The notes beneath the pieces were generated by a model. It was not told the DNA's origin. It did not search any database and saw only the letters and a list, made by a program, of their open reading frames with translations. Both the position numbers and the translations under genes were made by a program. Of a stretch of 64,000 bases of DNA, positions 1 to 56,712 are shown piece by piece; position 1 is the stretch's first letter, and the number at the start of each line of letters is the position of its first letter. Source of the DNA: Bacilli bacterium (GTDB lineage: Bacteria > Bacillota_I > Bacilli_A > RF39 > UBA660); assembly GCA_017435485.1 (NCBI GenBank), contig JAFSEY010000013.1:600-64599 (forward strand), read 5' to 3'.

Positions 1-953
1 GAAGATATATATTTTTGATCTTGGATAACTCTATATTTTTCATACTCACGTTCTGCTTTTTCTAATGCTTGTTTATGTGATATTTTACCTGAATCTTTTA
101 AAACTTGTTTTCGTCTAAATTTTAATAAATCATCTGTTGCATTTATCCAATCTTTCATTGTCATAATATGTCTTTCTTTTGCTTCATCTTCTGCAAAAAC
201 TAAAAACATATTAGTTAAATCATTTAATTTATTAAGTTCTTCTTCATTTAGATAATTTTTAGCAACTCCAACATCATATTTATATATTAACCCATCAGGA
301 GAATTTTTCCAAGATGTAAGTCCCATATTATCTTTAGTACTATTTGCTCTAGTATAAATAAGTTCAGCAGCAGTATGTCCAGAAATTGCATAATGTAATT
401 TGTTTTGAACTATTTTAAAGAACGTATATGCTTCTTCTGATTTAGGATTATAATCAGTTGATGTAGCAATAAATAAATCTGTAATTTTTTGATAAGACAT
501 TCTTTCGCTTACTCTAATTGTTTTTATTCTTTCAAGTAATTCATCAAAATATTTTGCATCGTATTTATTACCTTTAATAAAACGTTCATCATTTAATGCA
601 AAACCTTTAGTTATATAGTCTTTTAATATCTTTGTTGCCCATATTCTAAATTCAGTTGCTTTTTTAGAATTAATACGATATCCAACTGCAATTATTGCAT
701 CCAAACTATAAACTTCAGTATTATAGTTTTTACCATCTTCTGCAGTTATTTCCATTTTGGAAACAACTGAATTTTTATCTAGTTCTTTTTCTTCAAATAT
801 ATTTTTTAAATGTTTAGATATTGCAGGAACTCCTACTTCAAATACTTTAGACATTCCTTTTTGAGATAACCATAGTGTATCATCTTTATATATTGCATCA
901 ACAATTATATTTCCATCTTTATTTTTATATATTATTAAATCATTTTCTTGCAT
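1..953 (-). CDS. RhuM-family protein (virulence/Fic-associated family), partial - C-terminus cut by the window edge
   Basis: The minus-strand ORF starting at ATG 953..951 is absent from the ORF track because it runs off the window. Its translation begins MQENDLIIYKNKDGNIIVDAIYKDDTLWLSQKGMSKVFEVGVPAISKHLKNIFEEKEL, which is the typical RhuM N-terminus. Confidence 0.7.
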   Translation of the reverse strand, partial: MQENDLIIYKNKDGNIIVDAIYKDDTLWLSQKGMSKVFEVGVPAISKHLKNIFEEKELDKNSVVSKMEITAEDGKNYNTEVYSLDAIIAVGYRINSKKATEFRIWATKILKDYITKGFALNDERFIKGNKYDAKYFDELLERIKTIRVSERMSYQKITDLFIATSTDYNPKSEEAYTFFKIVQNKLHYAISGHTAAELIYTRANSTKDNMGLTSWKNSPDGLIYKYDVGVAKNYLNEEELNKLNDLTNMFLVFAEDEAKERHIMTMKDWINATDDLLKFRRKQVLKDSGKISHKQALEKAEREYEKYRVIQDQKYIS

Positions 954-1144
954 AATATTCTCCTTTCTATTTGATATTTTTAAAAGTTAATTAAAGGCGT
1001 TATTACCTCAATATTAATTTGTTTTTCTAAGATTTTTCTAAATATAATGTAAATAGTTTTTATATGTAAATCCTTATAAACAAAGGCTTGGTACGGAAGT
1101 TAACTTAAGTCGGTATACACCAATTAATATTTGTATTACTTTCA

Positions 1145-2014
1145 TTATTCATTATTCACACCTACTTTATCTTCAATTTGTTTTACTTCATCAATGTACT
1201 TATAACTCAAAGCATTTTTATTAGATATTGCTGATTTTTTTGTTTCTATTTCGTACAAATCTCTAGCCCCTTTAGCAACATTTCCACCTCTTTTGGCAAC
1301 ATGCAAATTTTCATTAAGTCCTTGTGGATGTTCTTCTCTAGCAATATCTCTAGCTGCTATCTCTCCTATATTAGTCAAAGCAATTTCAATATCTGTCATA
1401 TTATCTCTTAAAGATTCTTTTCTAAGACCTTTATAAGCTTTATATTCACTTGCTTTCATTCCAGACCACCCTTTATAAATTTCATTTGTGAGTAGTGCAT
1501 ATTCTATCGGTTTAGTTATTCCTCCCTCTTTCCAAACATCTGTAAGTTTAAATCTATCTACTATTCCAGTAAGTCTTCTCTTTATCCATTCATCAGTATA
1601 ACCTTTATTACGATAATAATTAACGGCTCTATTAACTGCTATTTCAGGATCAAAAACTTCATCAATTCGTTCACTACCTAAATTTGCAAGCCAAATTTTA
1701 AAAGGTTCAGCCTTTTGACTAGGTACAGATTCAATAAGTCTAAATATACCTTTTGTATCTAGCATATCAGTATTACGCATTTTACCATCTTTAGCTTTTA
1801 ATTTGAAAGTGTCACAGTTTGTGACGGTTTCGTTTCCCTCTTTAATCATCCTTGATTTTAAAGTTCTCCAATAATGTGAAGGATCATTACTTTCTGTTAA
1901 TACACTAATAACATCAATAACACTAAAATAATAATCTTCTTTTTCTGCATCCCATATACTTCGTATTTCTTTATCTTCAAAAAGATTTGAAATTGCTTCT
2001 AATTTATTATTCAT
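1145..2014 (-). CDS. DinD-like DNA-damage-inducible protein D (Bro-N/KilA-N-type N-terminal domain)
   Basis: The 289-aa product has an N-terminus (NKLEAISNLFEDKEIRSIWDAEKEDYYFSVIDVISVL) resembling DinD/Bro-N family proteins. It pairs with RhuM, as often seen in accessory or prophage regions. Confidence 0.55.
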   Translation of the reverse strand: MNNKLEAISNLFEDKEIRSIWDAEKEDYYFSVIDVISVLTESNDPSHYWRTLKSRMIKEGNETVTNCDTFKLKAKDGKMRNTDMLDTKGIFRLIESVPSQKAEPFKIWLANLGSERIDEVFDPEIAVNRAVNYYRNKGYTDEWIKRRLTGIVDRFKLTDVWKEGGITKPIEYALLTNEIYKGWSGMKASEYKAYKGLRKESLRDNMTDIEIALTNIGEIAARDIAREEHPQGLNENLHVAKRGGNVAKGARDLYEIETKKSAISNKNALSYKYIDEVKQIEDKVGVNNE

Positions 2015-2047
2015 CCTTTCCCTCCATTCTATTTTTACTATAAGTTT

Positions 2048-2764
2048 TCATTTAAAATAATCATTTATTTTATTTAATAAATTTTCTTTATTTTCCTCAA
2101 ATTGCTTTTTTCTATGCCCATTCGCACCTGATGGGTGCGGAAAACCTAATAAGCACTGTTCTTCTTTAATTAATTTTTCAATTATCATAAATTCTAAAAC
2201 TTCTTCTACAGCTTTTCCTAATGGAATAATCAAAGTGTTTTTCATATTTTCAACTTCTTTATAAAAATACTCTTTCATATAAAATAGTAATGTTTCATCA
2301 TCCAATATTTTTGGATTTGAACCTGTATAGTTTTTATTATTAATAAATACTGGATATGGAATTATAGAAGTTGTGTGCAACAATTCATCTTTATCTTCAA
2401 ATAATTCTAAACAAGAATTAATGTTTAATTTTTCATTTAATTTTAATTCATCTAACATTTCTATTAAATTTTTTCTCATACTTCCAGCAAATCTGGAATT
2501 TCTTTTACATTCCTTCTTTGTTGTATCATAATCCATGTTGTGCATTAATCCATCATATGCAGTTTTATAGGCAATACTGGTTTGTGTCCACCCTGGAGTT
2601 ATACCAACTATAAATACTCTGGCATTATTATTAATAATTTCATTGTGAGGAGCATAATATATTTCCATATTATTTTTATTAAGTAATAAAAATTTTTCAT
2701 TTAAAATACTTTTTTTGTCAAAACTATCTAAATTTTTTATTTCTATAGAATATTTATCAAACAC
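2048..2764 (-). CDS. uracil-DNA-glycosylase-superfamily-like protein (tentative)
   Basis: The 238-aa product has an N-proximal GITPGW motif and a C-proximal GFPHPSGANGHR motif, reminiscent of UDG-superfamily motifs A and B (GxxPG ... HPS). There is no global match, so this is only a fold-family guess. Confidence 0.3.
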   Translation of the reverse strand: MFDKYSIEIKNLDSFDKKSILNEKFLLLNKNNMEIYYAPHNEIINNNARVFIVGITPGWTQTSIAYKTAYDGLMHNMDYDTTKKECKRNSRFAGSMRKNLIEMLDELKLNEKLNINSCLELFEDKDELLHTTSIIPYPVFINNKNYTGSNPKILDDETLLFYMKEYFYKEVENMKNTLIIPLGKAVEEVLEFMIIEKLIKEEQCLLGFPHPSGANGHRKKQFEENKENLLNKINDYFK

Positions 2765-3032
2765 ATTATCACCTCATTTTATATTTAAGGGGGGTGCACG
2801 TCGTTATCAAGCCAATAATTCCTACCCCAAAACATAATATTTTTTATAAAAAATGACTGTTTTTAGGCAGTTTTAGCTAATTTTTATATAAAACATGCAA
2901 AATCTAAATCTTCGTAAATCCTTTATTTACAATGGTTTTCCTAAAGGGGCAGAAATCGTTATCAGGCAGTTATTGTTTGGTAATTTGCTCCTTTTTTCAT
3001 TATTATCGCTTCCTTTATTTAGGATAAACTAA

Positions 3033-3533
3033 TTATTTAATATTTTCAAATAGCCAGAAACCTGCCATATTCTCTTTCCCATGACATTTTATTGCTTCTA
3101 GCATTTTTTCTAGAGTTACTACTCTATAACCTTGGTCATCTTCTGGATATATCAGTGTAATAGAATCATCTTTAATTTTTTCTATTAATGTTGCATGACC
3201 GCCTTCCATTTGTTTATTAAACATTACACCTCGTTTATAGCATACTATTATATCATCTTCTATATATTTACTTAAAAACATTTTAGCTTCATTATAATCT
3301 GTAATAAAAAAATATTTAAAGCTAAGAGGTATTTTATGTTTTTTTAGGTAATTTGTTATAGAATACTCTTCTTTGTTTACTTGCGTTCCTTTATACTCTT
3401 GGTCATTTATAAGCCCTAATTCCTGCGCCATTTCAATTTGTGAATCATATGGAATATTATTTTTATCAAATATCATTTGCAAACATCTAGGGACACAGCA
3501 ATATGGTTCCTGTTTTATTAATTTATATCTCAT
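3033..3533 (-). CDS. stand-alone papain-like C39-type cysteine peptidase domain protein
   Basis: The 166-aa product carries QEPYCCVPRCLQMIF (C39-like catalytic Cys context) and a downstream GGHATLIEKI (His). It has no transporter domain. Confidence 0.4.
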   Translation of the reverse strand: MRYKLIKQEPYCCVPRCLQMIFDKNNIPYDSQIEMAQELGLINDQEYKGTQVNKEEYSITNYLKKHKIPLSFKYFFITDYNEAKMFLSKYIEDDIIVCYKRGVMFNKQMEGGHATLIEKIKDDSITLIYPEDDQGYRVVTLEKMLEAIKCHGKENMAGFWLFENIK

Positions 3534-3557
3534 AGTTTCGCTTCCTTTTTTTATTAA

Positions 3558-4331
3558 TTATTTCTTGGCTAAAAAAGCCATGAATTGTGGTATTTCACTA
3601 TTCTTTATGTAATAATTCATATCAACTGTTTTAGCTTCTTCGATACATCTAGATTCTGTAAAATCTAAAACTTGAAAATTAGCTTCTCTTAATAATTTAA
3701 AATGCATCGATGGAGAACCAACATAAAACGCTAATACTTCCTTATCATTTTGCCATGCAAATGACGTAAAAACATGTTTTTCAAATGTGTGATATTTACC
3801 ATATACTTTGTTTCCATCATCATTTTTTGAACATCCTATAATTCTCAATGTTTCATCATCTATATTCTTTTCTTCTGAAGCCCATCTTAAAGGATGCCCG
3901 ACAGAAAACAAAAACAAACCGTTTGGCTTTAAAACCCTATACACTTCTTTATATATTTTTTCTGGGGTAGCACTATAATGAATCGCTAAACTACTATATA
4001 CGAAATCAAAACTATTACTTTCAAACGGAAGTTCATTCATATCTCCTACTATAAATTCTTTATCGGGATATGCTTTTTTCGCTAATTCTATTGATTTATT
4101 AGATATATCAATTCCAGTTAATTGTTCGGAAGTCGCACCAAAAGTTTCAAGCAAATCTGATTCTTCTCCTGTACCACAGCCCAACATTAATACTTTTTTG
4201 TTTTTTAAATTCGGTAGCATCGATTTCATCATAGGCTTTTCAACAAAACGATGAGAAGGCTTCATGCCATTAATTAAATCTTGTTGTCTTTTTTCAGCAA
4301 ATTTATCATAATCATTTATAATATTTTCCAT
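3558..4331 (-). CDS. class I SAM-dependent methyltransferase
   Basis: Motif I VLMLGCGTGEESD, followed by an acidic loop and motif II (FDFVYSS), in a 257-aa product. Confidence 0.75.
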   Translation of the reverse strand: MENIINDYDKFAEKRQQDLINGMKPSHRFVEKPMMKSMLPNLKNKKVLMLGCGTGEESDLLETFGATSEQLTGIDISNKSIELAKKAYPDKEFIVGDMNELPFESNSFDFVYSSLAIHYSATPEKIYKEVYRVLKPNGLFLFSVGHPLRWASEEKNIDDETLRIIGCSKNDDGNKVYGKYHTFEKHVFTSFAWQNDKEVLAFYVGSPSMHFKLLREANFQVLDFTESRCIEEAKTVDMNYYIKNSEIPQFMAFLAKK

Positions 4332-4407
4332 GTATCTTTTCTCCTTTAAAACATTTTTTATAAATTATTTTTAATTCTTAACAAAACTTATTTAATATCT
4401 AATCAAA

Positions 4408-5007
4408 TTATTTTTTGCTACCACTTATTACTAAAAATTTGCCTTCTATGGATTCATATCCAGCTTCTTCATCTAAATTTTCTTCAGAAAAATTGAAAAT
4501 CTCGATTTCAATAGAAAAATCGCCTAGTTCTTGTTGAAATAACAAAATTGCTTCTTGGGCAGTATAACTTCCTTCATTTTCAAAAACGACAAATTTTCCA
4601 GCACTATCAAGGCGTTTAATATCCGTTGCAAAATCTAAAATTATTTTTCCTTTTGGCTTTAATACTCGTTTTATTTCTTTAAGTATCTTTATAATTGTTT
4701 CTTTTTTAAATAAATGTAATGTGCCAGTGCAAAATATTCCGTCAAACTTATCATCGCCAAATGGAAAAACTTCCGTTATATCGACTTTTTTTGTCTGTAA
4801 TTTACTTTTAAATTTATTAGGACAATTATCTTCTAAAATTTTTAATTCTTTATCTTCAATATCAATTGCTAATACCTTATTAGCCATTTCTAATAATTTA
4901 TTATTAAATCTACCATCCCCTGCTGCAATATTGAGTACATTTCCATAAAAACCAACTCTTTGAATTACAGATAAAGTTTCTGGTTCTTCTATTCCCCATT
5001 TAGACAT
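4408..5007 (-). CDS. class I SAM-dependent methyltransferase (short)
   Basis: VLNIAAGDGRF Gly-rich motif I, ..LAIDIEDKE motif, FDGIFCTG, in a 199-aa product. Confidence 0.6.
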   Translation of the reverse strand: MSKWGIEEPETLSVIQRVGFYGNVLNIAAGDGRFNNKLLEMANKVLAIDIEDKELKILEDNCPNKFKSKLQTKKVDITEVFPFGDDKFDGIFCTGTLHLFKKETIIKILKEIKRVLKPKGKIILDFATDIKRLDSAGKFVVFENEGSYTAQEAILLFQQELGDFSIEIEIFNFSEENLDEEAGYESIEGKFLVISGSKK

Positions 5008-5084
5008 ATTAATTCATCTCTTTTCAATTAAATATATTACTTGCGATATTTTTCCTTTTCTTACCATCTACGTTTTGATTGCTT

Positions 5085-5993
5085 TTAAAACGGCAAAAGT
5101 GATTCATCATCTTCTTCTGGATTACTTTTCAGATTACGATTTAATTCCTTTCGAAATTCTTCAGGATCCATCGCTAATATCCTTTTACGTCTTAATTCTT
5201 TTATTTCTGTGGAATCTGTTGCAGCCCAAACTTCTTTTGATGTAAATTTGATATTTACAGCAGGATCTCTTTCGATATAATCGGGATCGGCCAAACCTTT
5301 TTTCATTCTTTCAATCATTAAAAATCTATCGTTAAAAAAGTCTTTCGTAAGTGTGGAACTATGTGGCATAAAGTCTAAATCTTTTCTTTGCATTCTTTCT
5401 TGACAACGTTTTAATAATTCTGAAAATTCTGGAGAAATTATAGCTTTTTGGTATTTGATTATTAAATCATGGTTTTTCTCATCTGCATCTTCTTTTTTCC
5501 ACATATAAACTTTCATAAGAAAATCAATGGCTTCTAAAAATTCCATATTATGGGTAAGCTTTAAATAATCATAAACATTTCCACTAGAGCCACACCCAAA
5601 ACAATTAAATATATTTTCATAATCTTTTACTCTAAAAGATGGGGTTTTTTCAGAGTGATATGGACAAAGAATCATGTATCCATTTGGACCTGTGAATCTG
5701 CCAAAATTAAAATCAGCATCTGCTAAAACTATCGGAAGAATCAAAGCACGTTTCTTAACGTAATTTACGGTTTTATTATTATAATTTAAAACTCCATCTT
5801 TATGGAAATAGATAAGTTTTAGTAAATTAATTAATTGTAATCTAATTATTTGATAATTAATATCATTTAACATTTTATCATTAATTGAGGATAATAAATT
5901 TTTAAGTTCATAATAATCTTCTTTAGTTAACCCTTCTGTTAAAGCTTTATGTCTAAATTCACTAATTTTTTTATTCATTTCTTCTACTGGCAT
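5085..5993 (-). CDS. CHC2 (primase-type) zinc-finger domain protein lacking a TOPRIM domain
   Basis: A central CPYHSEKTPSFRV...NCFGCGSSGNVYDYL stretch matches the DnaG/primase zf-CHC2 signature. The flanking regions are alpha-helical with no recognisable catalytic domain. Confidence 0.6.
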   Translation of the reverse strand: MPVEEMNKKISEFRHKALTEGLTKEDYYELKNLLSSINDKMLNDINYQIIRLQLINLLKLIYFHKDGVLNYNNKTVNYVKKRALILPIVLADADFNFGRFTGPNGYMILCPYHSEKTPSFRVKDYENIFNCFGCGSSGNVYDYLKLTHNMEFLEAIDFLMKVYMWKKEDADEKNHDLIIKYQKAIISPEFSELLKRCQERMQRKDLDFMPHSSTLTKDFFNDRFLMIERMKKGLADPDYIERDPAVNIKFTSKEVWAATDSTEIKELRRKRILAMDPEEFRKELNRNLKSNPEEDDESLLPF

Positions 5994-6027
5994 AATAAAC
6001 CTCCCTGTTAATCTAGTACTTTAGTCT

Positions 6028-6564
6028 CTATTTAATGTTTTTTATTGCAGCTGATATATCATTGCTTGTATCAATAAATGTAATACCATATCTTTTACAT
6101 TCTTCTTCAATTTTCTTACTTAAGTGAATTAATTGTTCCAATATATCTAATAATTCTTCGTCACTTTTTTTAAATGTCCAGTCAAACTCGCTATCATATT
6201 TTCTTATTATTGCTAGTTTTTCCTCAGCAGGAATATTAGGATATCCTACAAAATAAATATCCCATTTATCTTTATCTAAATATTTAATAATATCTTGAGG
6301 TAATATGTGAGCGGAATCGATAATAAATTTTTCTTCTTGGTTATTCATTATTTCAATTACTCGAGATAATAATAAACTTAAATTTTTACTGCTTTCTTCA
6401 TTTATAACGACATTACTAACTATATTTGTTTGGGGAAAATTATGTTTTAATGATGAAGTAAAATAATCTAAGGGAATATGATTGTATTCTTTGTCTTCTT
6501 TTAGTTTTTTTGCTAATGTTGATTTACCGGAACGAGCTACTCCAGCAATAAAAATGTTTTTCAT
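6028..6564 (-). CDS. P-loop NTPase / small-molecule kinase-like protein
   Basis: N-terminal Walker A IFIAGVARSGKSTLAKKL in a 178-aa product, i.e. adenylate/shikimate-kinase-like size. Confidence 0.55.
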   Translation of the reverse strand: MKNIFIAGVARSGKSTLAKKLKEDKEYNHIPLDYFTSSLKHNFPQTNIVSNVVINEESSKNLSLLLSRVIEIMNNQEEKFIIDSAHILPQDIIKYLDKDKWDIYFVGYPNIPAEEKLAIIRKYDSEFDWTFKKSDEELLDILEQLIHLSKKIEEECKRYGITFIDTSNDISAAIKNIK

Positions 6565-6597
6565 TAGGCACCTCTTTTCTTGTAAATTATAACATAA

Positions 6598-6622
6598 AAG
6601 AGTAGCATTTGTATCTACTCTT
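6598..6622 (-). terminator. hairpin (aagagtag-N9-ctactctt) followed on the minus strand by TTTTATGTT, lying between lepB and the leftward island
   Basis: 8-bp perfect inverted repeat followed by a U-rich tail, as read from the sequence. Confidence 0.4.
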
Positions 6623-6789
6623 AATTACTTTTATTAAATCCAATATCCAAAGATATATCTTCTAATCTTTTTTTTACATCATCAATAAATAATTTATCTT
6701 CAGTTTTTTTAATTTTGGAAATTAACTTTTTAAAATCTAAATCTTCTCTAACAGTACTTATTAATTCCGTTAAATAATAAGCATCTTTT

Positions 6790-7275
6790 TTATTTTACAA
6801 AACCAATTTTATTAAATGGATAAATAACTAAACTAGTTGTTCCTTGGATATTTTCTTTTTTTACTGGTCCAATCATCCTACTATCTTTCGAAATGGTTCG
6901 ATTATCTCCTAAAACAAAATATTCGTCTTTATCTAATTTAATTAATTCAAAGTCTTCGGTAATTCCATAGCCATATTTATCTTCAATTTTTTTATTATTT
7001 ATATAAATTGTATTATCTTTACAAAGGATTCTATCTCCAGGGAGTCCATAAACTCTTTTAATGATATGATCTTCTTCTTGGGAAGAAACTACTACGATAT
7101 CATATCTTTCTATCTTCTTAGAAAATTTATTTAAAATCATTAATTCTCCCCCGGAAAGGTTCGGAAACATACTTTTTCCACTAACTAATATAGGAGTTAC
7201 AATAAATGTTCTGATTAGAACAACCACTATTACAATAATTATATAAGGATAGATTTCTTTTAATATTTTTTTCAT
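6790..7275 (-). CDS. lepB: signal peptidase I
   Basis: N-terminal TM segment, SGKSMFPNL (catalytic Ser box), GDNRTISKDSR box E. Confidence 0.85.
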   Translation of the reverse strand: MKKILKEIYPYIIIVIVVVLIRTFIVTPILVSGKSMFPNLSGGELMILNKFSKKIERYDIVVVSSQEEDHIIKRVYGLPGDRILCKDNTIYINNKKIEDKYGYGITEDFELIKLDKDEYFVLGDNRTISKDSRMIGPVKKENIQGTTSLVIYPFNKIGFVK

Positions 7276-7314
7276 AAGATTCCTTTCAATTTAAAAAAAT
7301 TAAGGTTGATTACC

Positions 7315-7656
7315 TTAATTTCTTTCTTTAACTTTATATTCTTTACGCATTTTCTTAATAAAGTTAAGTTTAGCTCTTCTAACCATACCTTTTTTAACTA
7401 CAGTAATTTTGTCGATTGTAGGAGCATTAACTGGGAATACTCTAATTACACCAACAGTACCGCTTTTCTTACGTACAGTAAAAGTTTCAGATACTCCGCC
7501 GCCTTTTTTAGCGATTACTAATCCTTCAAAAGCTTGGATTCTTTCTTTCTTTCCTTCTTTTACCCAAACATCAACACGTACAGTATCACCTACACGAAAT
7601 TCAGGTATATCTTTTCTCATGTGCTTCTTAGCTATTTTGTCAACTAAATTTGTCAT
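7315..7656 (-). CDS. rplS: 50S ribosomal protein L19
   Basis: The 113-aa product (FRVGDTVRVDVWVKEGKKERIQAFEGLVIAKKGGG) is canonical L19 and sits downstream of trmD. Confidence 0.95.
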   Translation of the reverse strand: MTNLVDKIAKKHMRKDIPEFRVGDTVRVDVWVKEGKKERIQAFEGLVIAKKGGGVSETFTVRKKSGTVGVIRVFPVNAPTIDKITVVKKGMVRRAKLNFIKKMRKEYKVKERN

Positions 7657-7774: not shown

Positions 7775-8410
7775 TTAGAACCTCATTGATTCGCCTTTTT
7801 TTCTAGCTATTACTAAAGCAGCCGAAGTCTCTCCAGGTATAGAATGATATAAATCATCGTTTACAAATTCTTCTGTCATTTGGGATATTAAAGTTGGATC
7901 ATATAGTTCATTAAAAGAATTTTCGTCAAAAACTAAGTTGTTTGATCCATCAATAATAAAACCTTCTATATCTTTATTGTAACTATGAATGTAACGATTG
8001 TTAAATAAACCGCGGCAAAAAGAAGTACAAAGATCAAACCATAAAGTTTCAGTTAATTCTTGCGATATTGAATGGCACTCATTTTTCAACATATTATTTG
8101 CTAACCTATCGTTTAATATTTTACAGTCTATTGTTTCGGTTGCTTCCATAGCTTTAAATATTCCATCTTTGGTATCTAAAATCATAGTAGCACCTTCTCT
8201 TCTAGCTTCTTTAATAAACAAACCGCTACTATATAAATAAAGAGGAAATTGTTTATATATTGCTAGACGATTAAATAGAGTTGCATAAAAACTTTTAAAA
8301 TTAAAATCATATTTTTTTAATATTTCTTCTACTTCTGATTCATATTTTTTTATATTTGGATTAGTTAATGCAGCTACAATGTTACTACCAACACTATTGT
8401 TTGTTAGCAA
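7775..8410 (-). CDS. hypothetical protein, paralog of the adjacent 8483..9214 gene
   Basis: Shared blocks with its neighbour (YDFNFKSFYATLF / YNFNIYDFYNETLI; SGLFIKEARREGAT / KGLFIKNIKKDGLF). No recognisable domain. Confidence 0.5.
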   Translation of the reverse strand: MLTNNSVGSNIVAALTNPNIKKYESEVEEILKKYDFNFKSFYATLFNRLAIYKQFPLYLYSSGLFIKEARREGATMILDTKDGIFKAMEATETIDCKILNDRLANNMLKNECHSISQELTETLWFDLCTSFCRGLFNNRYIHSYNKDIEGFIIDGSNNLVFDENSFNELYDPTLISQMTEEFVNDDLYHSIPGETSAALVIARKKGESMRF

Positions 8411-8482: not shown

Positions 8483-9214
8483 TTATACACTTATATCACC
8501 TATTTTCTTTGCTTTTTTTAAAGCGAGAGTAAATATTGGAAAATCTTTATTTTCATCATAATCTTTATATTCTTTTGTAGCAAAATATTCTTCTTTGGTA
8601 ACTTTGCTAATAATAATTGGGTTAAATAGCTTGTTGTATTGATCTTGATTCATAATCATATTGTGACTTGCATCCCAAACCTGATTAGTTCTTTCGCAAA
8701 TATTGTATGAATGTAAGTAATAACCCCCAAAATCCATTTTACATAGTGCTGTTACAGCAGTAAGACCTTTTGTTTCTAATAAATAAGTGGTATGTTTATG
8801 ACAATCACAGACTAATTCATAGTTTTTTTTAGCCTGTAATAACATTTTATCTTTTATATATTCTGCTAATAAAGCAAATCTAAATGTTTCATTAATTGTA
8901 CTCATCGAAACAAACAATCCATCTTTCTTGATATTTTTTATAAATAATCCTTTAATTAAATGATTTATATCTAAATTATTTTCTGTAGCTATATCGATTA
9001 GCGTTTCATTATAAAAATCATAAATATTGAAATTATAGTCAGCTAAAATATTTATAATCTCATCCTCATAAGCATGACTATTTGAATGTAATAATATTTC
9101 TCTTAAAGAAATCCCTAAAGAGTTATTAGTTTGTTTTGCTAGTGTTGTTATAACTTGATCTTTAATATCATTATTTTGGTCTATCGAATTATTTTCATAT
9201 TTAATTAAATCCAT
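8483..9214 (-). CDS. hypothetical protein, paralog of 7775..8410
   Basis: See the paralog entry; 243 aa, contains a CDCHKH motif. Confidence 0.5.
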   Translation of the reverse strand: MDLIKYENNSIDQNNDIKDQVITTLAKQTNNSLGISLREILLHSNSHAYEDEIINILADYNFNIYDFYNETLIDIATENNLDINHLIKGLFIKNIKKDGLFVSMSTINETFRFALLAEYIKDKMLLQAKKNYELVCDCHKHTTYLLETKGLTAVTALCKMDFGGYYLHSYNICERTNQVWDASHNMIMNQDQYNKLFNPIIISKVTKEEYFATKEYKDYDENKDFPIFTLALKKAKKIGDISV

Positions 9215-9243
9215 ATTAACCCCTCAATTTAGTTACCTATTTT

Positions 9244-9283
9244 ATCACAAAATAAAAAAATGTCTATATTTTTTAGACATTTT
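9244..9283 (-). terminator. intrinsic terminator (aatgtcta-N7-tagacatt plus U-run) overlapping the stop codon of the 9282..9734 gene
   Basis: 8-bp perfect stem followed by TTTTTTATTTTGTG on the minus strand. Confidence 0.6.
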
Positions 9284-9734
9284 ATCTTCCTTTAGATTTT
9301 TCTTGTTCGTTTTCAAAATTAAACATATTGTTGAAAGCTCTTATTTGAATTAATTTTTCACTTAGTGATCGTTCTAATCCTTCTAGCTGTTCTAAAAACA
9401 TTGTTTCTTTTTCCATTTTAATTTTATTATGATATTTATATAATAAAATTTCTTTTAATTTTGCCACTTCATCTAATGCAATAATACAATCACCTTCTGA
9501 AGTATCACTAGCATGAAGGATACTTAATACAATCATTACTAAACGTTTATATTTTTCTTTGAATTTTATCGTAATTAATTTGTCTACTAAACTAGGTTTT
9601 ACAATCATTATTTCATCAACTTTTAATTGATTATTTCCGTTGTTTTTTGATTTCATGTTATAACCTGTAAGATCATAGTTGTAATAAATTATTTCTTTTT
9701 TATCATCACTTTTTCTAATCACATAATTTTTCAT
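9282..9734 (-). CDS. hypothetical protein (150 aa) inserted downstream of trmD
   Basis: ORF with no recognisable motif, in a position where Bacillus has rplS directly after trmD. Confidence 0.45.
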   Translation of the reverse strand: MKNYVIRKSDDKKEIIYYNYDLTGYNMKSKNNGNNQLKVDEIMIVKPSLVDKLITIKFKEKYKRLVMIVLSILHASDTSEGDCIIALDEVAKLKEILLYKYHNKIKMEKETMFLEQLEGLERSLSEKLIQIRAFNNMFNFENEQEKSKGR

Positions 9735-9742
9735 TGTACCAC

Positions 9743-10405
9743 CTACTTTAATAAATCTGGTCTTTTTTCTTTAGTTTTTTTTATTTGCATTTCTTTACGA
9801 TAGTCAGCTATTTTTTTATGATCTCCACTCAATAATATTTCTGGTACTGTTAAACCACGATATTCCCTTGGCTTAGTATATGTCGGATAATCTAACAAAT
9901 TATTTTCAAAGCTTTCACTTTCTAAACTGCCACTAGTAATTACCCCATCTACTAATCTACTAATAGAATCTATTAATATCATGGCAGGAATTTCTCCACC
10001 TGTTAAAATAAAATCCCCTATACTGATTTCACAATCTATTAACGTTTTTATTCTTTCATCAAAACCTTCATAATGGCCACATATAATTATTAAATGTTTT
10101 TCTTTAGAAAATTCCTTGGCTGTACTTTGATTATACGTTTTACCTTCTGGAGTTAAGAGTATGACTTTACTTTCAGGCGTTTTGATATCATCAATAGCTA
10201 AAAAGATTGGTTCACATCTTAATACCATTCCACTTCCTCCACCATAAGGAGTATCATCAACTTGTTGATTGTTTAGTGGTGAATAGTCGCGAAAATTTAT
10301 AATATTTATTTCAATTAAATTTTTCTCGATAGCTCTTTTAATAATTGATTCTTCTAAAATATTTTTGAACATATTTGGAAATAAAGTTAATATATCTATT
10401 CTCAT
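9743..10405 (-). CDS. trmD: tRNA (guanine37-N1)-methyltransferase
   Basis: MRIDILTLFPNMF..., YGGGSGMV; 220 aa. Confidence 0.95.
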   Translation of the reverse strand: MRIDILTLFPNMFKNILEESIIKRAIEKNLIEINIINFRDYSPLNNQQVDDTPYGGGSGMVLRCEPIFLAIDDIKTPESKVILLTPEGKTYNQSTAKEFSKEKHLIIICGHYEGFDERIKTLIDCEISIGDFILTGGEIPAMILIDSISRLVDGVITSGSLESESFENNLLDYPTYTKPREYRGLTVPEILLSGDHKKIADYRKEMQIKKTKEKRPDLLK

Positions 10406-10923
10406 AAAATCAAGTCCTTAGCTTTCTTAGTATAAACTATATTATTTTCTAAATCTACTTTTTCAATATAATTGCCTTTTAAAGGAATATAAAATTTTTT
10501 AATTCCTTCAACTAATAATAAATCATTACCGTTATTATATATTATTTCTTTGATAACGCCAAGTTTTTCATTGTTTTCCATTATTGTACAAAGGATTAAC
10601 TCTTCTACAACATAATCATCTTTATTTATGTTTAAATCTGCTCTTTTAATATAAACCGGTAACGATTTTAATTTTAAAGCTTCATTAATATCATTTATCC
10701 CTTCTAATGTAACCATTTCAAAATCTTTATGATGACGATAAGAAATTATTTGATATGGATAATAATCTTTGCCTATATATATATTAAAATTAGGTATTAA
10801 TACTTCTTCTTTTCGTTCAAAATTACTTTTTATTCTTATTTCGCCCTTTATACCATGGGTACTAACTATTTTACCAAAATATAAATATTCTTTCATATAC
10901 TCACTCTTTATCATAAATTTCAT
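10402..10923 (-). CDS. rimM: 16S rRNA processing protein RimM
   Basis: FGKIVSTHGIKGEIRIKS N-terminus; position upstream of trmD. Confidence 0.9.
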   Translation of the reverse strand: MKFMIKSEYMKEYLYFGKIVSTHGIKGEIRIKSNFERKEEVLIPNFNIYIGKDYYPYQIISYRHHKDFEMVTLEGINDINEALKLKSLPVYIKRADLNINKDDYVVEELILCTIMENNEKLGVIKEIIYNNGNDLLLVEGIKKFYIPLKGNYIEKVDLENNIVYTKKAKDLIL

Positions 10924-11626
10924 GCATGATAATGGATGCGGCTACTCCAGCATTTAGTGATTCACAAGCAGGGTTCATTGTTAATGTTATAAATTTATCA
11001 CAAATACTTTGGCACTCTTTGCTCATACCTTTTCCTTCATTGCCTATTATTATAGCTACTTTTTCATTTTTCGCAATATTTTTAATAGAAACTCCATTAT
11101 TTAATGAAGTACCATAGATCATATAGTTGTTTTGTTTTAGTTGTTCTACACAATTTTTAACATCACTTCGGATGACATTACTATAAAAAATCATTCCTTC
11201 GCTCGATCTAATTACTTTTTCGTTGTATAAATCAACGCAGTTGTTTACTAGAATGATAGTTTTAAAATCAAAAGCTATACTACTTCTTATTATTGTTCCT
11301 AAATTTCCTGGATCTTGAATCTCGTCTAATATCAAAACATTTCCATAAATTTCTTTTTCCGATAGTTTTTGACAAATACCAATTATTGAAGGAGCACTTT
11401 TTTGATTAGATATTTTTTTCATAATATCACTAGTTACTTGATATGTATCTACACTAAATTCTTTATTCAATGTAGTTATAATTTCTAATAGTACATTATT
11501 TTTTAAAGCTTCCTCTATTAAATGGTCACCTTCAACTATAAATTTATTCTCGTTATCGCGAAATTTTTTATCATATAATTTAGCCCAATATTTAACTTTA
11601 GCATTATTTAAACTAGTTATTTCCAT
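10901..11626 (-). CDS. TrmH/SpoU-family RNA 2'-O-methyltransferase
   Basis: LILDEIQDPGNLGTIIRSS, GNEGKGMS and ESLNAGVAASIIMHE are SPOUT motifs. Confidence 0.8.
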   Translation of the reverse strand: MEITSLNNAKVKYWAKLYDKKFRDNENKFIVEGDHLIEEALKNNVLLEIITTLNKEFSVDTYQVTSDIMKKISNQKSAPSIIGICQKLSEKEIYGNVLILDEIQDPGNLGTIIRSSIAFDFKTIILVNNCVDLYNEKVIRSSEGMIFYSNVIRSDVKNCVEQLKQNNYMIYGTSLNNGVSIKNIAKNEKVAIIIGNEGKGMSKECQSICDKFITLTMNPACESLNAGVAASIIMHEIYDKE

Positions 11627-11628
11627 AT

Positions 11629-12276
11629 TTACTCCTTTAATTTTTTTCTTGCTTCTTTATATTTTGGATACGCTTGCGATACTAAGTCCCAAAATTTTTT
11701 CCCATGATTGCCTTCAAAAAAGTGACACATTTCATGAATAATTACATAATCAATTAAATCAATATCTTTTTCTAATAATAAACTATTTAAAGTGATAGTG
11801 TTATTTCTTCTATTACATACACCCCATCTTGTTTTCATTTTACGAACCTTTAAAGTAAACTCAGGGAGTTTTCGAAAACATTGACGGCACTTATCACATT
11901 CTTCAGTAAAAACATTAAAACACTCATCTTTAATAAATTTTTCTAACATTTTTTCATCTTTAGAATAAATAGTTTTTTCTTCGTTATTTAGTATAACACT
12001 TTCTTTATTTTCATCAAACATTAATAAATAATTTTCTCCTAGATATTTAAAATAATTAGATGGATTTATTTTTTCTTTTTGTTTTGCATACATTTTTTCT
12101 AAACTAGCTTTATTCGATTCAACCATTTTCAATATTTCTTTTTCTTTTACAAATATTGGACATGTTATATACAATTTTAAATCTTCTTTAATTCGAAAAT
12201 AAGCATTTTTATTTTTTTTGCGAATAATAATTATTTCTACATCATTTCCTAACAAATCACATTTCATTAGTTTCAC
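11629..12276 (-). CDS. YgjP-like (DUF45/WLM) metal-dependent hydrolase
   Basis: C-terminal YVIIHEMCHFFEGNHGKKFW (HExxH zinc motif of the YgjP family). Confidence 0.7.
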   Translation of the reverse strand: MKLMKCDLLGNDVEIIIIRKKNKNAYFRIKEDLKLYITCPIFVKEKEILKMVESNKASLEKMYAKQKEKINPSNYFKYLGENYLLMFDENKESVILNNEEKTIYSKDEKMLEKFIKDECFNVFTEECDKCRQCFRKLPEFTLKVRKMKTRWGVCNRRNNTITLNSLLLEKDIDLIDYVIIHEMCHFFEGNHGKKFWDLVSQAYPKYKEARKKLKE

Positions 12277-12325
12277 CTATCTAATTTTAACATAAGAAAG
12301 AAAAAAATTGTAGTTTAAACCACAA

Positions 12326-12592
12326 TTATTTATTTCGCGTTTCATATTGACCATTTTTTTGTAAAATTTTTCTTAATATCGGAGTTCTTGCTTGAGCAGT
12401 ATACCCTAGTTCTCTTAATAAAAAAGCCATTTCAGCAAGTGCTTCTTCACTAACATAACCAACTATTATTTCATTAGTAGATAAATCCATATATTTTGAC
12501 AATCTTGCTTGTAATCCTTCTTCATATACTCTATATTTATTTCCTGGACTTTCTAGAAATTCTTCTAAAAAAAGTTGTCCTTCTATTTCCAT
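12326..12592 (-). CDS. hypothetical 88-aa protein, translationally coupled to the paralog operon
   Basis: Its start overlaps the stop of the 12592..13866 gene. No motif recognised. Confidence 0.4.
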   Translation of the reverse strand: MEIEGQLFLEEFLESPGNKYRVYEEGLQARLSKYMDLSTNEIIVGYVSEEALAEMAFLLRELGYTAQARTPILRKILQKNGQYETRNK

Positions 12593-13866
12593 TACACTGT
12601 CCCTTTTTTATTAGACTTTAATCTTAATCTTGCTAACTCATCTATTTTATTAAATGCTATTCTTACTTCTTTGAGATACTCGTATAAATCACACCAAGCC
12701 ATTGCAACTAATTCTTTATAGTCTTCATATGTAACTTCATTTTTAGCATATGAAATAATTTCTCGGTCAATTGATTGGACTAAATAAGTTAGATTAAAAA
12801 TTACATATTTATAAAGTCCATCATTATTAAAGTATTCACTCGATATAATATAATTTGCGAAATTATAAATACTTTCCACCCTATTAAATTCTTCTTCTTT
12901 TTTTATTTGGGCAATTTTTTGTTTTAATAAATTAGCTTCCATTAATTCATTATGCTTGGCTATTTTTATTAAAATTAATTTTTTGTTTTCTTCAGATATT
13001 TTTATTTTTTCGCATAACGAAAGAATTTCTATTGTTAGTTGCTCATCAATATATTCAGCATATAATATTTTATAATTATTTAAATCAATATAATTTCTTA
13101 ACTGTAAATAAATTTTATTGTTTGCATTCATTTGAGCAATAATATCTTCTGATGTTTTTGTATTTCCCGGAATAATTTCTGCTTTTTTGACTGGAATTTT
13201 TTCTTGAGAATATTTTTGAGACATTAATTTATGTTCACTTACATTCATAACACGACTTGCTTGTCCAGGAGATAGCATAAGAAATTTAGTCAAAGTATTA
13301 AAGACACTTTCATCTTTTTCACTACCTTCGATTTTACCATCCAATTTAAAAATCGTTTCTATTTTATCTAAGTGAGTTCTAAGTCTTAAAGCATACATGC
13401 TTATTTCTTCTGTACTAATTTCATTTGATTTAGTTAATGAAAGTCTTTCTACTATTTTATCAGTAGTGTAGTATTTAGCAAAAATATTTATAAACATTGC
13501 TAGTATAGAATCTTTTTGAGTTTTATTTAATCCCAAACTATTTATAATTATTTCTAGTGTAGCAAAACAATCAACATTTAATCTTAACCCTAATGAATAT
13601 TCATATAATCTTATTACTCTATAAACCATCTCTTTTTTTGTTAAAAATTGCTCGTTTTTATCATTTATTAATAAGCAATTAAATCCTATCATATTAACAT
13701 TATTTTCTTTAAGCACCTTTGTCATTTCAGGACTTATCTTTAATTCTGCTAATTCAGAATCTAAATCAAATAAATATTTATTTGATTTACTCAAATGTTC
13801 ACATAATTCATTTGTTAATTTTTTTAATAATTCAATTAATTTAATCCGAAATTCTTCAATTGGCAT
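12592..13866 (-). CDS. uncharacterised alpha-helical protein, tandem paralog family member 5 of 5
   Basis: Shares the ISEENKKLILIKIAKHN block and a helix-rich architecture with the four genes upstream of it. Confidence 0.6.
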   Translation of the reverse strand: MPIEEFRIKLIELLKKLTNELCEHLSKSNKYLFDLDSELAELKISPEMTKVLKENNVNMIGFNCLLINDKNEQFLTKKEMVYRVIRLYEYSLGLRLNVDCFATLEIIINSLGLNKTQKDSILAMFINIFAKYYTTDKIVERLSLTKSNEISTEEISMYALRLRTHLDKIETIFKLDGKIEGSEKDESVFNTLTKFLMLSPGQASRVMNVSEHKLMSQKYSQEKIPVKKAEIIPGNTKTSEDIIAQMNANNKIYLQLRNYIDLNNYKILYAEYIDEQLTIEILSLCEKIKISEENKKLILIKIAKHNELMEANLLKQKIAQIKKEEEFNRVESIYNFANYIISSEYFNNDGLYKYVIFNLTYLVQSIDREIISYAKNEVTYEDYKELVAMAWCDLYEYLKEVRIAFNKIDELARLRLKSNKKGTV

Positions 13867-13879
13867 TTAATACTCACTC

Positions 13880-15067
13880 CTAAAAATCTCTTTTGTTATT
13901 TTTTCTTATTCTTAAAGCAACATTTTTTATTTCATTATATTGCAGTAATTCCGTTAGTATCTCTTTTAAGGATTCAAATAATACTGCTAAATAAATTGGT
14001 AAATCCACTTTTTTTACACCTTCATTTATATATTCTAAAATCAAGTTATCTATCTCGCTTTTAATTTCGATAAGTTTTTTAAATAAATATTGATAATTGT
14101 AATTTAGGACTAACGTTTGATTTTTCAACAAAATTTCAGTTGTTTCATAATCATAAGTCATTATTTCAGAAAAATATACTCTTTTTGTTTCTAATATTTG
14201 AAATTTTACTTTATCCTCATTTAGTTTTTGATTATGCTTAGCAATATTTAATAATATTTTTGTTTTATTTTCTTCAGAAATATTAAGTTTTAATGCTAGC
14301 ATCATAATTTGAAGTTTTAAATCATCATTTATAAATTCTTCTATAAGAACTATATATGTTTCACCTTTTAAATCTATATATTTGTTTAAAATATTATATA
14401 GGTTTTGTTTTTCTTTTAGGGAAATATCTACAACCTTTTTTTGTTTTTCCGGCAATTTAAATTCTTGTTTCGGTTTATCTACTTTATTTGCTTTTATATA
14501 TAATCTATTACACTCATTAATAATTTCCTGAGCTTGGCGAGGAGTTATAAAAAGTATTTTAATTAAATCATTAATATTACTATCTTCAATACTAACTGGA
14601 TTTATTTTCTCTTCTTCATTAATATATTTACGTAAATTTAATATTCTTGCACGCATTTCTTTAGCAATTTTTTTAATAAGTTTATTTTTTTCTTCGTCAC
14701 CAATGTCCGTTTTGCTTTCACTTATACCTTTAAGATAAAAAATAAGATATTCTATTGTAACCTGGTTAATTGCTTGATTTAAAACATGTGCTAATATCAT
14801 TAATCTGTCTTTTGGTTGTACCCTTATTTTTTCAAATGCTTTATCGATTATTGGAAAACAAGTATAGCAAAAGTCGTCATTTGCAATTGCATCACTAACG
14901 ATTTGTAATTCTTTCGAAAATTTTTGTTCATCATTTTCGAATTCAATAGTTACATATTTGGTTCCACAAATCCCTATGTTTTCACTTGTTATTTTTTGAC
15001 TAACTGCTTTAGGACAAGTTTTTATTGCTAACAAATGCATTTCTTTACAAAATTCTTGTAATGTCAT
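13880..15067 (-). CDS. uncharacterised alpha-helical protein, tandem paralog family member 4 of 5
   Basis: Shares YINEEEKINPVS...ITPRQAQEIINECN and ISEENKTKILLNIAKHN blocks with the other family members. Confidence 0.6.
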   Translation of the reverse strand: MTLQEFCKEMHLLAIKTCPKAVSQKITSENIGICGTKYVTIEFENDEQKFSKELQIVSDAIANDDFCYTCFPIIDKAFEKIRVQPKDRLMILAHVLNQAINQVTIEYLIFYLKGISESKTDIGDEEKNKLIKKIAKEMRARILNLRKYINEEEKINPVSIEDSNINDLIKILFITPRQAQEIINECNRLYIKANKVDKPKQEFKLPEKQKKVVDISLKEKQNLYNILNKYIDLKGETYIVLIEEFINDDLKLQIMMLALKLNISEENKTKILLNIAKHNQKLNEDKVKFQILETKRVYFSEIMTYDYETTEILLKNQTLVLNYNYQYLFKKLIEIKSEIDNLILEYINEGVKKVDLPIYLAVLFESLKEILTELLQYNEIKNVALRIRKNNKRDF

Positions 15068-15068
15068 A

Positions 15069-17584: not shown

Positions 17585-17662
17585 TTAAAACACCCCTTTT
17601 GATGTGTTTTATATACTATCATAAAACAGCTTCAAAGTAAACAAAAAGCATCTATTAGACGC

Positions 17663-18886: not shown

Positions 18887-18930
18887 ATCCCTCTTTTAGT
18901 GCTAATTATGTTATCATGAAATAATTTTGT

Positions 18931-18961
18931 TGTAAACAAAAAGCATCAGAATTTGATGCTT
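18931..18961 (-). terminator. intrinsic terminator (aagcatca-gaatt-tgatgctt plus TTTGTTTAC) overlapping the glyQS stop codon
   Basis: Perfect 8-bp palindromic stem and U-rich tail, as read from the sequence. Confidence 0.6.
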
Positions 18962-20322: not shown

Positions 20323-20371
20323 TTTAATAACACCTCTATCTAATTATACAAAAATTTTAATTAAACATCTA

Positions 20372-56349: not shown

Positions 56350-56712
56350 TTTAAAATCAAATAATATCTCATAAGCCATGTTCTGTCCTTAAAATTAAGG
56401 GACAAATATTTATCTACCATTACTGGTCCTCTATTAGATTCTTTATTCTCTTTTAGAAGCTCCCCTACCATAATTTGGGTTTCTCGCTTGTGGGGTTTAC
56501 CACGTTCCACTCCGTTTCGTTTCCAAAACAGCTCGTCTCTTTGGCACTTTTATATCTACTATAACCATTTAAGGTTATTTCGAAGCCGTTAGCATACACT
56601 ACCTTAGGTTATTTTTTCCCTAAGCACAAACACTACAACCATCACAGGTTGTGCGAGCATGGACTTTCCTCTACATAATAAATTTATGCAGCATTTGTCT
56701 CGATATTATTCG
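56350..56712 (-). ncRNA. rnpB: RNase P RNA (bacterial type B)
   Basis: The minus-strand sequence contains GAGGAAAGUCCAUGCUCGCAC, GUGGAACGUGGUAAACCCCACAAGCGAGAAACCCAAAUUAUGGUAGGGGA, GGACAGAACAUGGCUUAUGAGA and a P1 pairing (AAUAAUAUC/GAUAUUAUU). These are near-identical to the conserved cores of B. subtilis RNase P RNA. The patch is locally GC-rich, and it lies next to gpsB as in Bacillus. Ends are approximate (about 10 nt). Confidence 0.85.

Follow-up and report, generated by a model that had tools for sequence, protein, structure and literature searches.

A block of accessory genes was analysed in a 64,000-nt stretch of a Bacilli bacterium (GTDB lineage Bacillota_I; Bacilli_A; RF39; UBA660; GenBank assembly GCA_017435485.1, contig JAFSEY010000013.1, positions 600 to 64,599), the whole of which is referred to as the window. 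The block occupies the first 6.6 kb, where eight minus-strand open reading frames (ORFs), all in the same direction, run from the window edge to lepB. From the lepB side, they encode a P-loop kinase-like protein, a CHC2 zinc-ribbon protein, two class I S-adenosylmethionine (SAM) methyltransferases, a papain-fold cysteine peptidase or amidase candidate, a divergent member of the uracil-DNA glycosylase (UDG) superfamily, a Bro-N/DinD-like protein and a RhuM-family protein (Table 1). An earlier reading made from the letters alone (the sequence-only reading) had described the same eight co-directional genes, the hairpin next to lepB and the lack of tRNA or rRNA anchors. All of these were confirmed, the hairpin at 6620-6593 having an 8-bp stem followed by a T-run (-9 kcal/mol, z -2.0). 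The sole Rfam family in the window was RNase P RNA (class B, 56367-56706, minus strand, 263.7 bits), which lies far from the block. The G+C content of the block (0.23-0.30) was no different from that of the adjoining core genes, and the exact proteins were found in metagenome-assembled genomes (MAGs) of uncultured 'Bacilli bacterium', most of them without any relative at 90% identity. As set out below, the block is probably an accretion island, in which small units would have been inserted site-specifically and repeatedly at the start of the essential GTPase gene rbgA, located beyond the window edge.

The surroundings of the block were established by exact-protein look-ups, which retrieved four assemblies that match the window without a difference, including one that extends beyond its edge. 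On this 5.5-kb contig, 100% identical across an overlap of 3.6 kb, the RhuM gene (L001/L003) is followed leftwards by a 61-aa ORF, a flavin reductase gene, the active start of rbgA (ylqF) and rnhB, with rbgA and rnhB being reached within ~1 kb. The sequence-only reading had suggested an integrase, and had proposed to look for a tRNA target, in this direction, and neither these nor any other mobility gene were found on the extension contig. Judged from this gene order, the block interrupts the usual rplS-lepB/rbgA-rnhB neighbourhood. Moreover, among four strains with LepB proteins at least 90% identical and core DNA flanks 88-94% identical, no two had the same genes between lepB and rbgA. In this slot, strain L009 carries genes for a 255-aa protein, the P-loop protein, a 68-aa protein and a GNAT protein, and strain L027 carries the 255-aa gene, the P-loop gene, RhuM, DUF6870, NUDIX, a 2-hydroxyacid dehydrogenase, a 192-aa protein and DUF218. 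In strain L005 the slot spans at least 20 kb, with an insertion sequence (IS), an ABC transporter, NT5C, the same UDG-like gene as in the window, a second UDG, a dUTPase, a PurA-like gene, RhuM and SWIM. This presence/absence comparison bore out the earlier proposal of an accessory island, and the block is a real and strain-variable one. A genome-collection scan with LepB returned only distant Clostridia at 35-40% identity, which were uninformative for synteny.

The variable part of the slot extends from around window positions 5916-6064 to the first codons of rbgA. The P-loop gene, which the sequence-only reading had counted as part of the accessory block, lies beside lepB in all but one of the four arrangements, with amino acid identities of 95% (L009) and 88% (L027). 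Its assignment to the variable cargo was rejected, given this conservation, the lack of a junction before it and its position outside the units described below. What looks intergenic between the P-loop gene and lepB is the end of the 255-aa gene, of which the window strain has lost ~600 nt on the 5' side. On the other border, the homology with L009 stops 78 nt into the CHC2 gene, at around position 5916, and the first 23 codons of this gene (5916-5993) are 96% identical in amino acids to the start of the 68-aa ORF of L009 (11895-12101), after which the sequences diverge. This break appears to be a recombination or deletion breakpoint within a gene and not at an att-like site. A difference of 35 nt in contig L002, at the end of the peptidase-like gene, turned out to be a scaffold gap of Ns and was discarded as not real.

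Inside the islands, extra copies of the rbgA start were found, hereafter called relics, each comprising the ribosome-binding site (RBS), the ATG and the first ~10-18 codons of rbgA up to AAYTGGT. These relics do not continue into rbgA but into a conserved arm of ~100 nt, composed of TGATAACGATTT, a short CCTT..AAGG inverted repeat and a -35/extended -10 promoter that reads into the genes that come next. By profile, a total of 33 such junctions were found in 16 loci of several genera, all 33 being oriented as rbgA and breaking at one and the same nucleotide within the rbgA Trp codon, AAYTGGT|TGATTACGATTT (also written AAYTGGT|TGATTACG..., the bar marking the break). Active rbgA sites (n=19) read AAYTGGT|ATCCAGGNCATATG, and the arm sequence was conserved across genera. 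Furthermore, the relics resemble active rbgA starts found in the same or in other strains. The relic of L043 was 100% identical over 69 nt to the active start of L041, that of L049 was 97% identical over 69 nt to the active start of L034, and a relic of L005 was 93% identical over 59 nt to the active start of L009, while the L027 relic MDNRQNSTKTNINW matches the active start of the window strain (MEQNSTKTNINWF). In addition, L005 carries, at the position homologous to the first window relic, a relic that is 97% identical over 37 nt to its own active rbgA start, and a counterpart of the lepB-side hairpin and extended -10 lies in this strain immediately 5' of its oldest rbgA-start relic.

To locate these junctions in the window, a profile of 11 sites was used that excluded the window and the direct homologues of its sites. 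Exactly two matches were obtained in the 64 kb of both strands (2972-2870, E 1.5e-13, and 1150-1047, E 4.6e-8), and both are accompanied by relics (3015-2870 and 1152-1038). The first junction lies in the 268-nt intergenic region in which the sequence-only reading had noticed a repeated motif, and the repetition corresponds to the start of the arm together with a partial second copy of it. The second relic overlaps the stop codon of the DinD-like gene, and its translation is comparable with the active RbgA N-termini of the window strain (MEQNSTKTNINWF) and of related genera (MNENKTNINWY). The arm that follows it is 85% identical to an intergenic element of L027 located 3' of another rbgA-start relic. 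Both window arms contain promoter-like sites, the first (TTGCAT...TAAAAC) recognised by eye and the second (TTTACA-N18-TATATT at 1070-1041) as a scan match reading into RhuM. Overall, the promoter and terminator scan gave counts equal to the shuffled expectation, and it did not pick up the lepB-side hairpin. A search for direct and inverted repeats over positions 1-7400 returned AT-rich chance pairs only, as the att-like sites had diverged beyond its reach. A dif/Xer-type site in the arm (ACTTCC..AGAA) was also considered and dropped as an unsupported likeness in AT-rich sequence.

The arrangement of relics and arms would be explained by insertion at ...AAYTGGT| in the first codons of rbgA. 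Each incoming unit would supply a left arm of ~100 nt with its own promoter and one to four cargo genes, while its right end would carry a new promoter, an RBS and ~10-18 codons that rebuild the start of rbgA. The old start would thereby be displaced and left behind as a relic, so that successive insertions would build a stack with a relic and an arm between units. Under this scheme, the window appears to hold a stack of at least three units without recombinase, divided by the two junctions (units A, B and C in Table 1), unit C ending at the active rbgA start. Since no recombinase is present and the junction cores are mutated, the window units are probably fixed and immobile fossils. The N-terminus of RbgA was also found to vary. 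In this clade (window strain, L009, L027, L033-L056), a variable extension (MNENKTNINW, MSNEEKSFPKTSINW) precedes the conserved W[FY]PGHM, while more distant RbgA proteins (at most about 46% identical) mostly have three residues ahead of it (e.g. MNIQW). The variation of this extension among strains of one species is expected if the last inserted unit supplies it.

Table 1. Features of the block and its lepB-side border, listed from lepB towards the window edge; units, arms and relics are given as proposed here.
Feature	Positions	Strand	Remarks
rplS	7656-7315	-	PF01245, E 6.9e-40
lepB (signal peptidase I), conserved border of the slot	7275-6790	-	PF10502, E 3.5e-39
3' remnant (last 56 codons) of a 255-aa gene	6789-6620	-	Gene intact in strains L009 and L027
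Terminator-like hairpin (GAGTAGAT...GCTACTC TTTT) running into an extended -10 (TGTTATAAT)	6620-6587	-	
P-loop kinase-like gene, 178 aa	6564-6028	-	Weak match; Walker A GVARSGKST
Putative unit A	~5990-2965	-	CHC2, two methyltransferases, 166-aa protein, relic 1
CHC2 zinc-ribbon gene, 302 aa	5993-5085	-	PF01807
Class I SAM methyltransferase, 199 aa	5007-4408	-	PF08241, E 1.1e-16
Class I SAM methyltransferase, 257 aa	4331-3558	-	PF08241, E 1.2e-26
Papain-fold (clan CA, C39-like) cysteine peptidase/amidase candidate, stand-alone, 166 aa	3533-3033	-	Conserved residues and fold model
Relic 1 of the rbgA 5' end (AAGGAAGCGATAATA ATG ... ACCAAACAATAACTGCC)	3015-2965	-	Decayed, frameshifted
Putative unit B	2964-1120	-	Arm with promoter-like site, UDG-like, DinD-like, relic 2
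Arm of att-like site 1, element side (TGATAACGATTTCTGCCCCTTTAGG...TTGCAT...)	2964-2870	-	Left end of unit B; profile match
Partial second arm start (ATTGGCTTGATAACGACGTGCACCCCCCTTAAAT)	2816-2783	-	Read from sequence; below profile significance
Divergent UDG-superfamily gene, 238 aa	2764-2048	-	PF03167
Bro-N/DinD-like gene, 289 aa	2014-1145	-	PF02498, PADLOC PDC-S13; NCBI name 'phage antirepressor'
Relic 2 of the rbgA 5' end (ATG AAT AAT GAA AGT AAT ACA AAT ATT AAT TGG = MNNESNTNINW)	1152-1120	-	
Putative unit C	1119 leftwards	-	Arm with promoter-like site, RhuM, RhuM fragment/61 aa, flavin reductase, active rbgA start
Arm of att-like site 2, element side (GTATACCGACTTAAGTTAACTTCC...)	1119-1038	-	Left end of unit C; profile match
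RhuM-family gene	953->1	-	Truncated by the window edge, 333 aa complete; PF13310, PADLOC PDC-S05

Intact relatives of these units were found elsewhere. In particular, an empty and an occupied site were compared in L041 and L043, which belong to a genus other than that of the window. The 69 nt left of the junction are 100% identical in both, and L043 carries 4.7 kb inserted exactly at the junction, encoding a zinc-ribbon protein, a 120-aa protein, a 417-aa large serine recombinase (PF00239, PF07508 and PF13408, i.e. Resolvase, Recombinase and Zn_ribbon_recom) and a UG31-type defence reverse transcriptase, and ending in a new RBS, an ATG and 18 codons in frame with rbgA. The recombinase family is large (6,239 matches at E<1e-20). 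Six relatives were looked up, and five of them, with 72-95% identity, had zero or one gene before rbgA: L112/113, with a PDC-S06 ATPase as cargo and the synteny rplS-lepB...rbgA-rnhB-ltaS-topA as in the window; L115-118, with an AbiP2 reverse transcriptase; L126; L127; and L128, with zeta-toxin-like and HEPN cargo. In the sixth (L124/L125), an IS30-like insertion separates the array from what follows, this being the only recombinase context without rbgA next to it. Thus, the recombinase was found beside rbgA for six of the seven proteins examined, namely that of L043 and five looked-up relatives. In the intact cases it always lies in the rbgA-adjacent unit and never in an inner one, and a 30-aa recombinase fragment remains in the L038 array. 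Intact units of other genomes thus combine anti-phage cargo with a large serine recombinase of 410-417 aa on the rbgA side, and this enzyme presumably catalyses the insertion. The predicted attP (~60 bp) would be centred on ...AATCAATTGGT|TGATATTGTT..., and the predicted attB on ...ATAAATTGGT|ATCCAGGACATATG.... With these findings, the earlier idea of an integrative-element remnant held in part, as att-like relics occur inside the block and intact recombinase relatives elsewhere, while the integrase it had placed left of the window did not appear.

The recombinase-bearing and neighbouring units carried AbiP2 and UG31 reverse transcriptases and the PDC-S02, PDC-S06 and PDC-S22 families. The defence cargo comprised an AbiP2-type reverse transcriptase (L115, 284-1816, E 2.6e-162), a UG31 reverse transcriptase (L043, 8355-9935, E 1.2e-69), an AAA_13 ATPase of PDC-S06 (L112, 6027-7970) and a zeta-toxin-like kinase with a HEPN protein (L128, 3250-5861). 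In L124 (10560-12100), the divergence falls inside the rebuilt rbgA promoter (TTTTTTTATGA|CATTC...), beside an HTH_38 (IS30-like) gene, and type IV secretion genes lie close by on the opposite strand.

A slot of this kind might also be a mere hotspot, with homologous recombination between the conserved flanks (lepB/P-loop and rbgA) as the sole means of swapping cargo and with relics that arose as incidental duplications. Such an origin is consistent with the lack of a recombinase in all four arrangements of the species, with the strain breakpoints on the lepB side (window ~5916 and 6064), which fall within genes and not at att-like sites, and with the P-loop region being more alike between strains (95%) than the core (90%). 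However, incidental duplication does not account for 33 of 33 junctions breaking at one nucleotide of the rbgA Trp codon, for an arm conserved across genera, for the precise insertion bearing a serine recombinase in L041/L043, or for the position of six of seven recombinases beside rbgA, the seventh (L124/L125) having been split off by the IS30-like insertion. Swapping by homologous recombination alone is therefore considered unlikely; homologous exchange probably acts too, but it cannot generate the relics.

The gene architecture, the junctions, the polymorphism between strains and the association with the recombinase were observed directly. Several points weigh against the proposed stacking of site-specific insertions. 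No recombinase turned up in the window or in any of the four arrangements of the species, a tblastn search with the L043 protein having returned nothing in the 64 kb or in the arrays of the window strain, L005, L009 and L027. The cores of the two window junctions are altered (TGCC|TGAT and TGGT|GTAT), and unit A has no detectable left junction; its intergenic gaps are too short to contain one, so that deletions or fusions must be assumed. In the L112 array, a DinD-like gene and a RhuM remnant adjoin without a junction, and unit borders are thus not always kept. Moreover, the predicted crossover point rests on one empty/occupied pair and the consensus, and a part of the RhuM, DinD-like and UDG-like genes in phage defence would follow from family membership only. 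Finally, every dataset consists of metagenome assemblies, and the leftward extension was taken from the contig of another sample, albeit 100% identical over 3.6 kb.

The sequence-only reading had suggested, as one of two possibilities, a nucleic-acid-modification or defence module. In such a module of all eight genes, the glycosylase, the two methyltransferases, the primase-like zinc finger and the kinase would be expressed and act together. Their common direction and tight spacing agree with this, as do the domain-level PADLOC matches of both methyltransferases (mad2) and of the CHC2 protein (a DnaG-like protein associated with defence reverse transcriptases, DRT), and defence glycosylases of UDG-like type are known in the literature. 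In contrast, the genes are distributed independently: a CHC2 homologue occurs by a DnaJ-like gene, the peptidase-like gene forms a unit of its own in L119 and the UDG-like gene another in L005, and the P-loop gene is retained in strains that lack all the others. Furthermore, the block is divided by two att-like junctions with promoter-like sites, that of the second being the scan match mentioned above, and the methyltransferases match generic Methyltransf_11/25 only. PADLOC, which had been proposed as a check, recovered no complete known system, only the candidate families PDC-S05 and PDC-S13 and domain-level matches (mad2, DRT-DnaG-like and VakA). A single co-functional module is consequently very unlikely, and the cargo is better read as acting gene by gene.

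Within the proposed stack, the cargo genes move independently of one another. A single-gene unit of L005 with different flanks shares 90% identity with the UDG-like gene and the arm upstream of it, the homology beginning at the arm. The putative UDG fold of the window protein was corroborated, as it scored above the PF03167 cut-off (29.5 vs. 24.3 bits) and the motifs GITPGWTQ (motif A, GxxPG) and FPHPSGANGHR (motif B, HPS) are nearly invariant in a family of 1,303 representatives. A search of Protein Data Bank (PDB) sequences gave nothing usable for this protein or for the 166-aa protein, and a profile gave a weak SMUG1 match only, for which reason a fold search was needed. For the UDG-like model, with a predicted local distance difference test (pLDDT) value of 97, all 27 top PDB fold matches belonged to the UDG superfamily, with low query-normalised template modelling (TM) scores of 0.36-0.50, and the protein could be assigned to none of families 1-6. 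Divergent UDG-like cassette proteins have been described as anti-phage glycosylases, namely Brig1 and Brig2 (the latter in a preprint, 10.1101/2025.10.29.685425). By analogy, an anti-phage glycosylase is the likeliest role of the window protein.

The 166-aa protein had been called a C39-like peptidase, and this description was retained at the level of the fold. The residues Q8, C13, H113 and D132 were invariant in 18 of 18 sequences, and the model (pLDDT 94.7) matched papain-fold proteins of clan CA, including PeiR, Alr0975 (phytochelatin-synthase-like), CtaG and the C39 domains of PCAT1 and ComA. Foldseek also matched 3erv, a 'C39-like' Bacillus protein, with query-normalised TM scores of 0.57-0.71 for PeiR, Alr0975, the PCAT1/ComA C39 domains and 3erv. 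No match to Pfam (Peptidase_C39 included) or NCBIfam and no exporter nearby were found, and the best structural matches are not C39 proteins. The protein, with its Gln-Cys-His-Asp set, is thus best placed in clan CA with the family left unassigned, being C39-like at fold level only. A homologue with 67% identity is the single-gene unit of L119, located immediately 5' of rbgA.

The RhuM protein (PF13310, E 3.7e-99; PADLOC PDC-S05, E 2.3e-130) is 82.7% identical to the copy of L041/L043, yet the RbgA there is only 60% identical to that of the window strain, and it is ~50% identical to the RhuM of strains of the same species. It has been suggested that RhuM is a toxin domain in defence loci (PMC3710099). 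The DinD-like protein matched Bro-N (PF02498) in its N-terminal part (E 2.6e-10) and PDC-S13 over its full length (E 2.7e-112), and it is 74% identical to the Bro-N protein of the L112 rbgA array, where RhuM remnants come next. The suggestion that RhuM and DinD form a recurrent pair was sustained in so far as both recur together in other arrays, while the DinD label is weak, with a BLASTP match to Escherichia coli DinD of E 2e-5 over 59 aa of the C-terminal region of DinD.

Of the domain calls in the sequence-only reading, most were right. Both methyltransferases matched generic Methyltransf_11/25 and, among NCBIfam models, were nearest to BioC/UbiE-like families (for the 257-aa protein), all far below the cut-off, while no DNA-methyltransferase family scored. 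They look like generic or small-molecule enzymes and not DNA methyltransferases, so that an effect on the methylome is not expected. The CHC2 protein matched PF01807 (E 1.5e-19, residues 74-165), with no TOPRIM or primase catalytic domain matched, and covered positions 31-150 of the 414 of the dnaG NCBIfam model (70.5 bits vs. a cut-off of 283.6). Six full-length homologues were found, the nearest well-sampled of which (P0039) stands alone beside the DnaJ-like gene. The small P-loop NTPase-like gene, as it had been named, gave a weak kinase-like match.

A decayed prophage or integrative and conjugative element (ICE), with its integrase and att sites past the window edge, was also weighed, since Bro-N ('antirepressor') and RhuM genes are frequent in prophages and islands and the 5' end of rbgA is a target of streptococcal ICEs (PMC4701971). 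Nevertheless, rbgA and rnhB were reached ~1 kb left of the window with no integrase, the block has no structural, replication or conjugation genes, and no nucleotide match was obtained in 50,697 phage records. The recombinase had no close relative in a scan of viral contigs, and the units measure 0.7-4.7 kb, unlike phages or ICEs in size. An origin of this kind is extremely unlikely.

The stack of units proposed at rbgA was compared with known systems. The staphylococcal cassette chromosome (SCC/SCCmec) elements use Ccr large serine recombinases, integrate at the end of rlmH/orfX and can be found in tandem, including pseudo-SCC elements without recombinase. Both systems share a large serine recombinase, a single housekeeping-gene target, tandem accretion, att-derived repeats, recombinase-less units and accessory cargo. 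However, the rbgA arrays target the 5' end of a gene, and each unit must therefore rebuild the promoter, the RBS and the first codons. Their units are also far smaller (0.7-4.7 kb), they rely on one recombinase of 411 aa, the hosts are uncultured low-GC Bacilli, and the recognisable cargo is anti-phage and not antibiotic resistance.

With integrons and clusters of attC sites lacking integron-integrases (CALINs), the arrays share co-oriented small cassettes with a recombination site between them, insertion at one end and divergent UDG-like cargo. They differ by the serine recombinase and the relic-plus-arm junctions (no IntI or attC turned up, although no search was aimed at them), by the own promoter of each unit and by a platform that is the start of an essential gene. 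The streptococcal ICEs inserted in the 5' end of rbgA carry Tn5252-type or Tn1549-type conjugation modules and tyrosine integrases, and they share with the present arrays the target gene and end, the protein being preserved and the upstream region sometimes replaced (Ambroset et al. 2016, PMC4701971). In contrast to these large and conjugative elements, intact rbgA units use a serine recombinase and lack conjugation genes, and the arrays can reach nine or more small units. Pfam detected no integrase, relaxase or type IV secretion system family in the eight window proteins. Core defence hotspots, such as the cDHS of Pseudomonas aeruginosa (PMC10250203), also present a fixed slot between conserved genes with strain-specific, defence-associated content. 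Unlike them, the rbgA arrays show a turnover mechanism (att-like relics and a dedicated recombinase), and much of their cargo falls outside defence (methyltransferases, flavin reductase, NUDIX, GNAT and dehydrogenase). Overall, the rbgA arrays represent a site-specific island accretion known in kind, and what sets them apart is that each unit restores an essential gene's promoter and start. No description of such an arrangement was found in the searchable literature, which is not proof of absence.

If the proposed accretion holds, the mixture of genes becomes a dated insertion stack, the newest unit adjoining rbgA, with a defined target, a junction sequence and a candidate recombinase. The motif AAYTGGT|TGATTACGATTT 5' of rbgA would then offer a simple way to spot mobile cargo in little-studied Bacilli of the gut and rumen, giving access to anti-phage candidates such as RhuM, the Bro-N/DinD-like proteins, the large uncharacterised UDG-like family, the papain-fold enzyme and the AbiP2 and UG31 reverse transcriptases. 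The enzyme would represent a compact serine recombinase with a short, well-defined predicted attB inside a conserved gene, and the element a mobile one that has to restore an essential gene's promoter and start with every insertion. In a more speculative and rather doubtful extension of this reading, the arrays would be a cassette-capture platform of uncultured low-GC Bacilli that resembles an integron or an SCC island, in which the 411-aa recombinase, always rbgA-proximal, inserts small promoter-bearing cassettes into the first codons of rbgA and may re-excise them in trans. The internal junction (rbgA-start mimic plus arm) would resemble attP and the active rbgA site attB, so that a single enzyme, needing no directionality factor, could both take up recombinase-less cassettes and set them free again. 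The window units would in that case be such cassettes and not decayed autonomous elements.

Two further observations concern the wider region. The L005 array (9000-20500) consists of at least nine units 5' of rbgA with many nucleotide-metabolism genes, including an NT5C-type 5'-nucleotidase, two different UDG-fold proteins, a dUTPase and a 458-aa adenylosuccinate-synthetase-like (PurA-like) protein, plus RhuM and SWIM; this set could be aimed at phage nucleotide or base modification. On the other side of the slot, a pair of paralogous genes of unknown function (7775-8410 and 8483-9214, minus strand; 31% identity over 180 aa, E 4.5e-25) lies between trmD and rplS. Both are kept in all strains, and the start of the first differs between gene callers (211 vs. 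238 aa).

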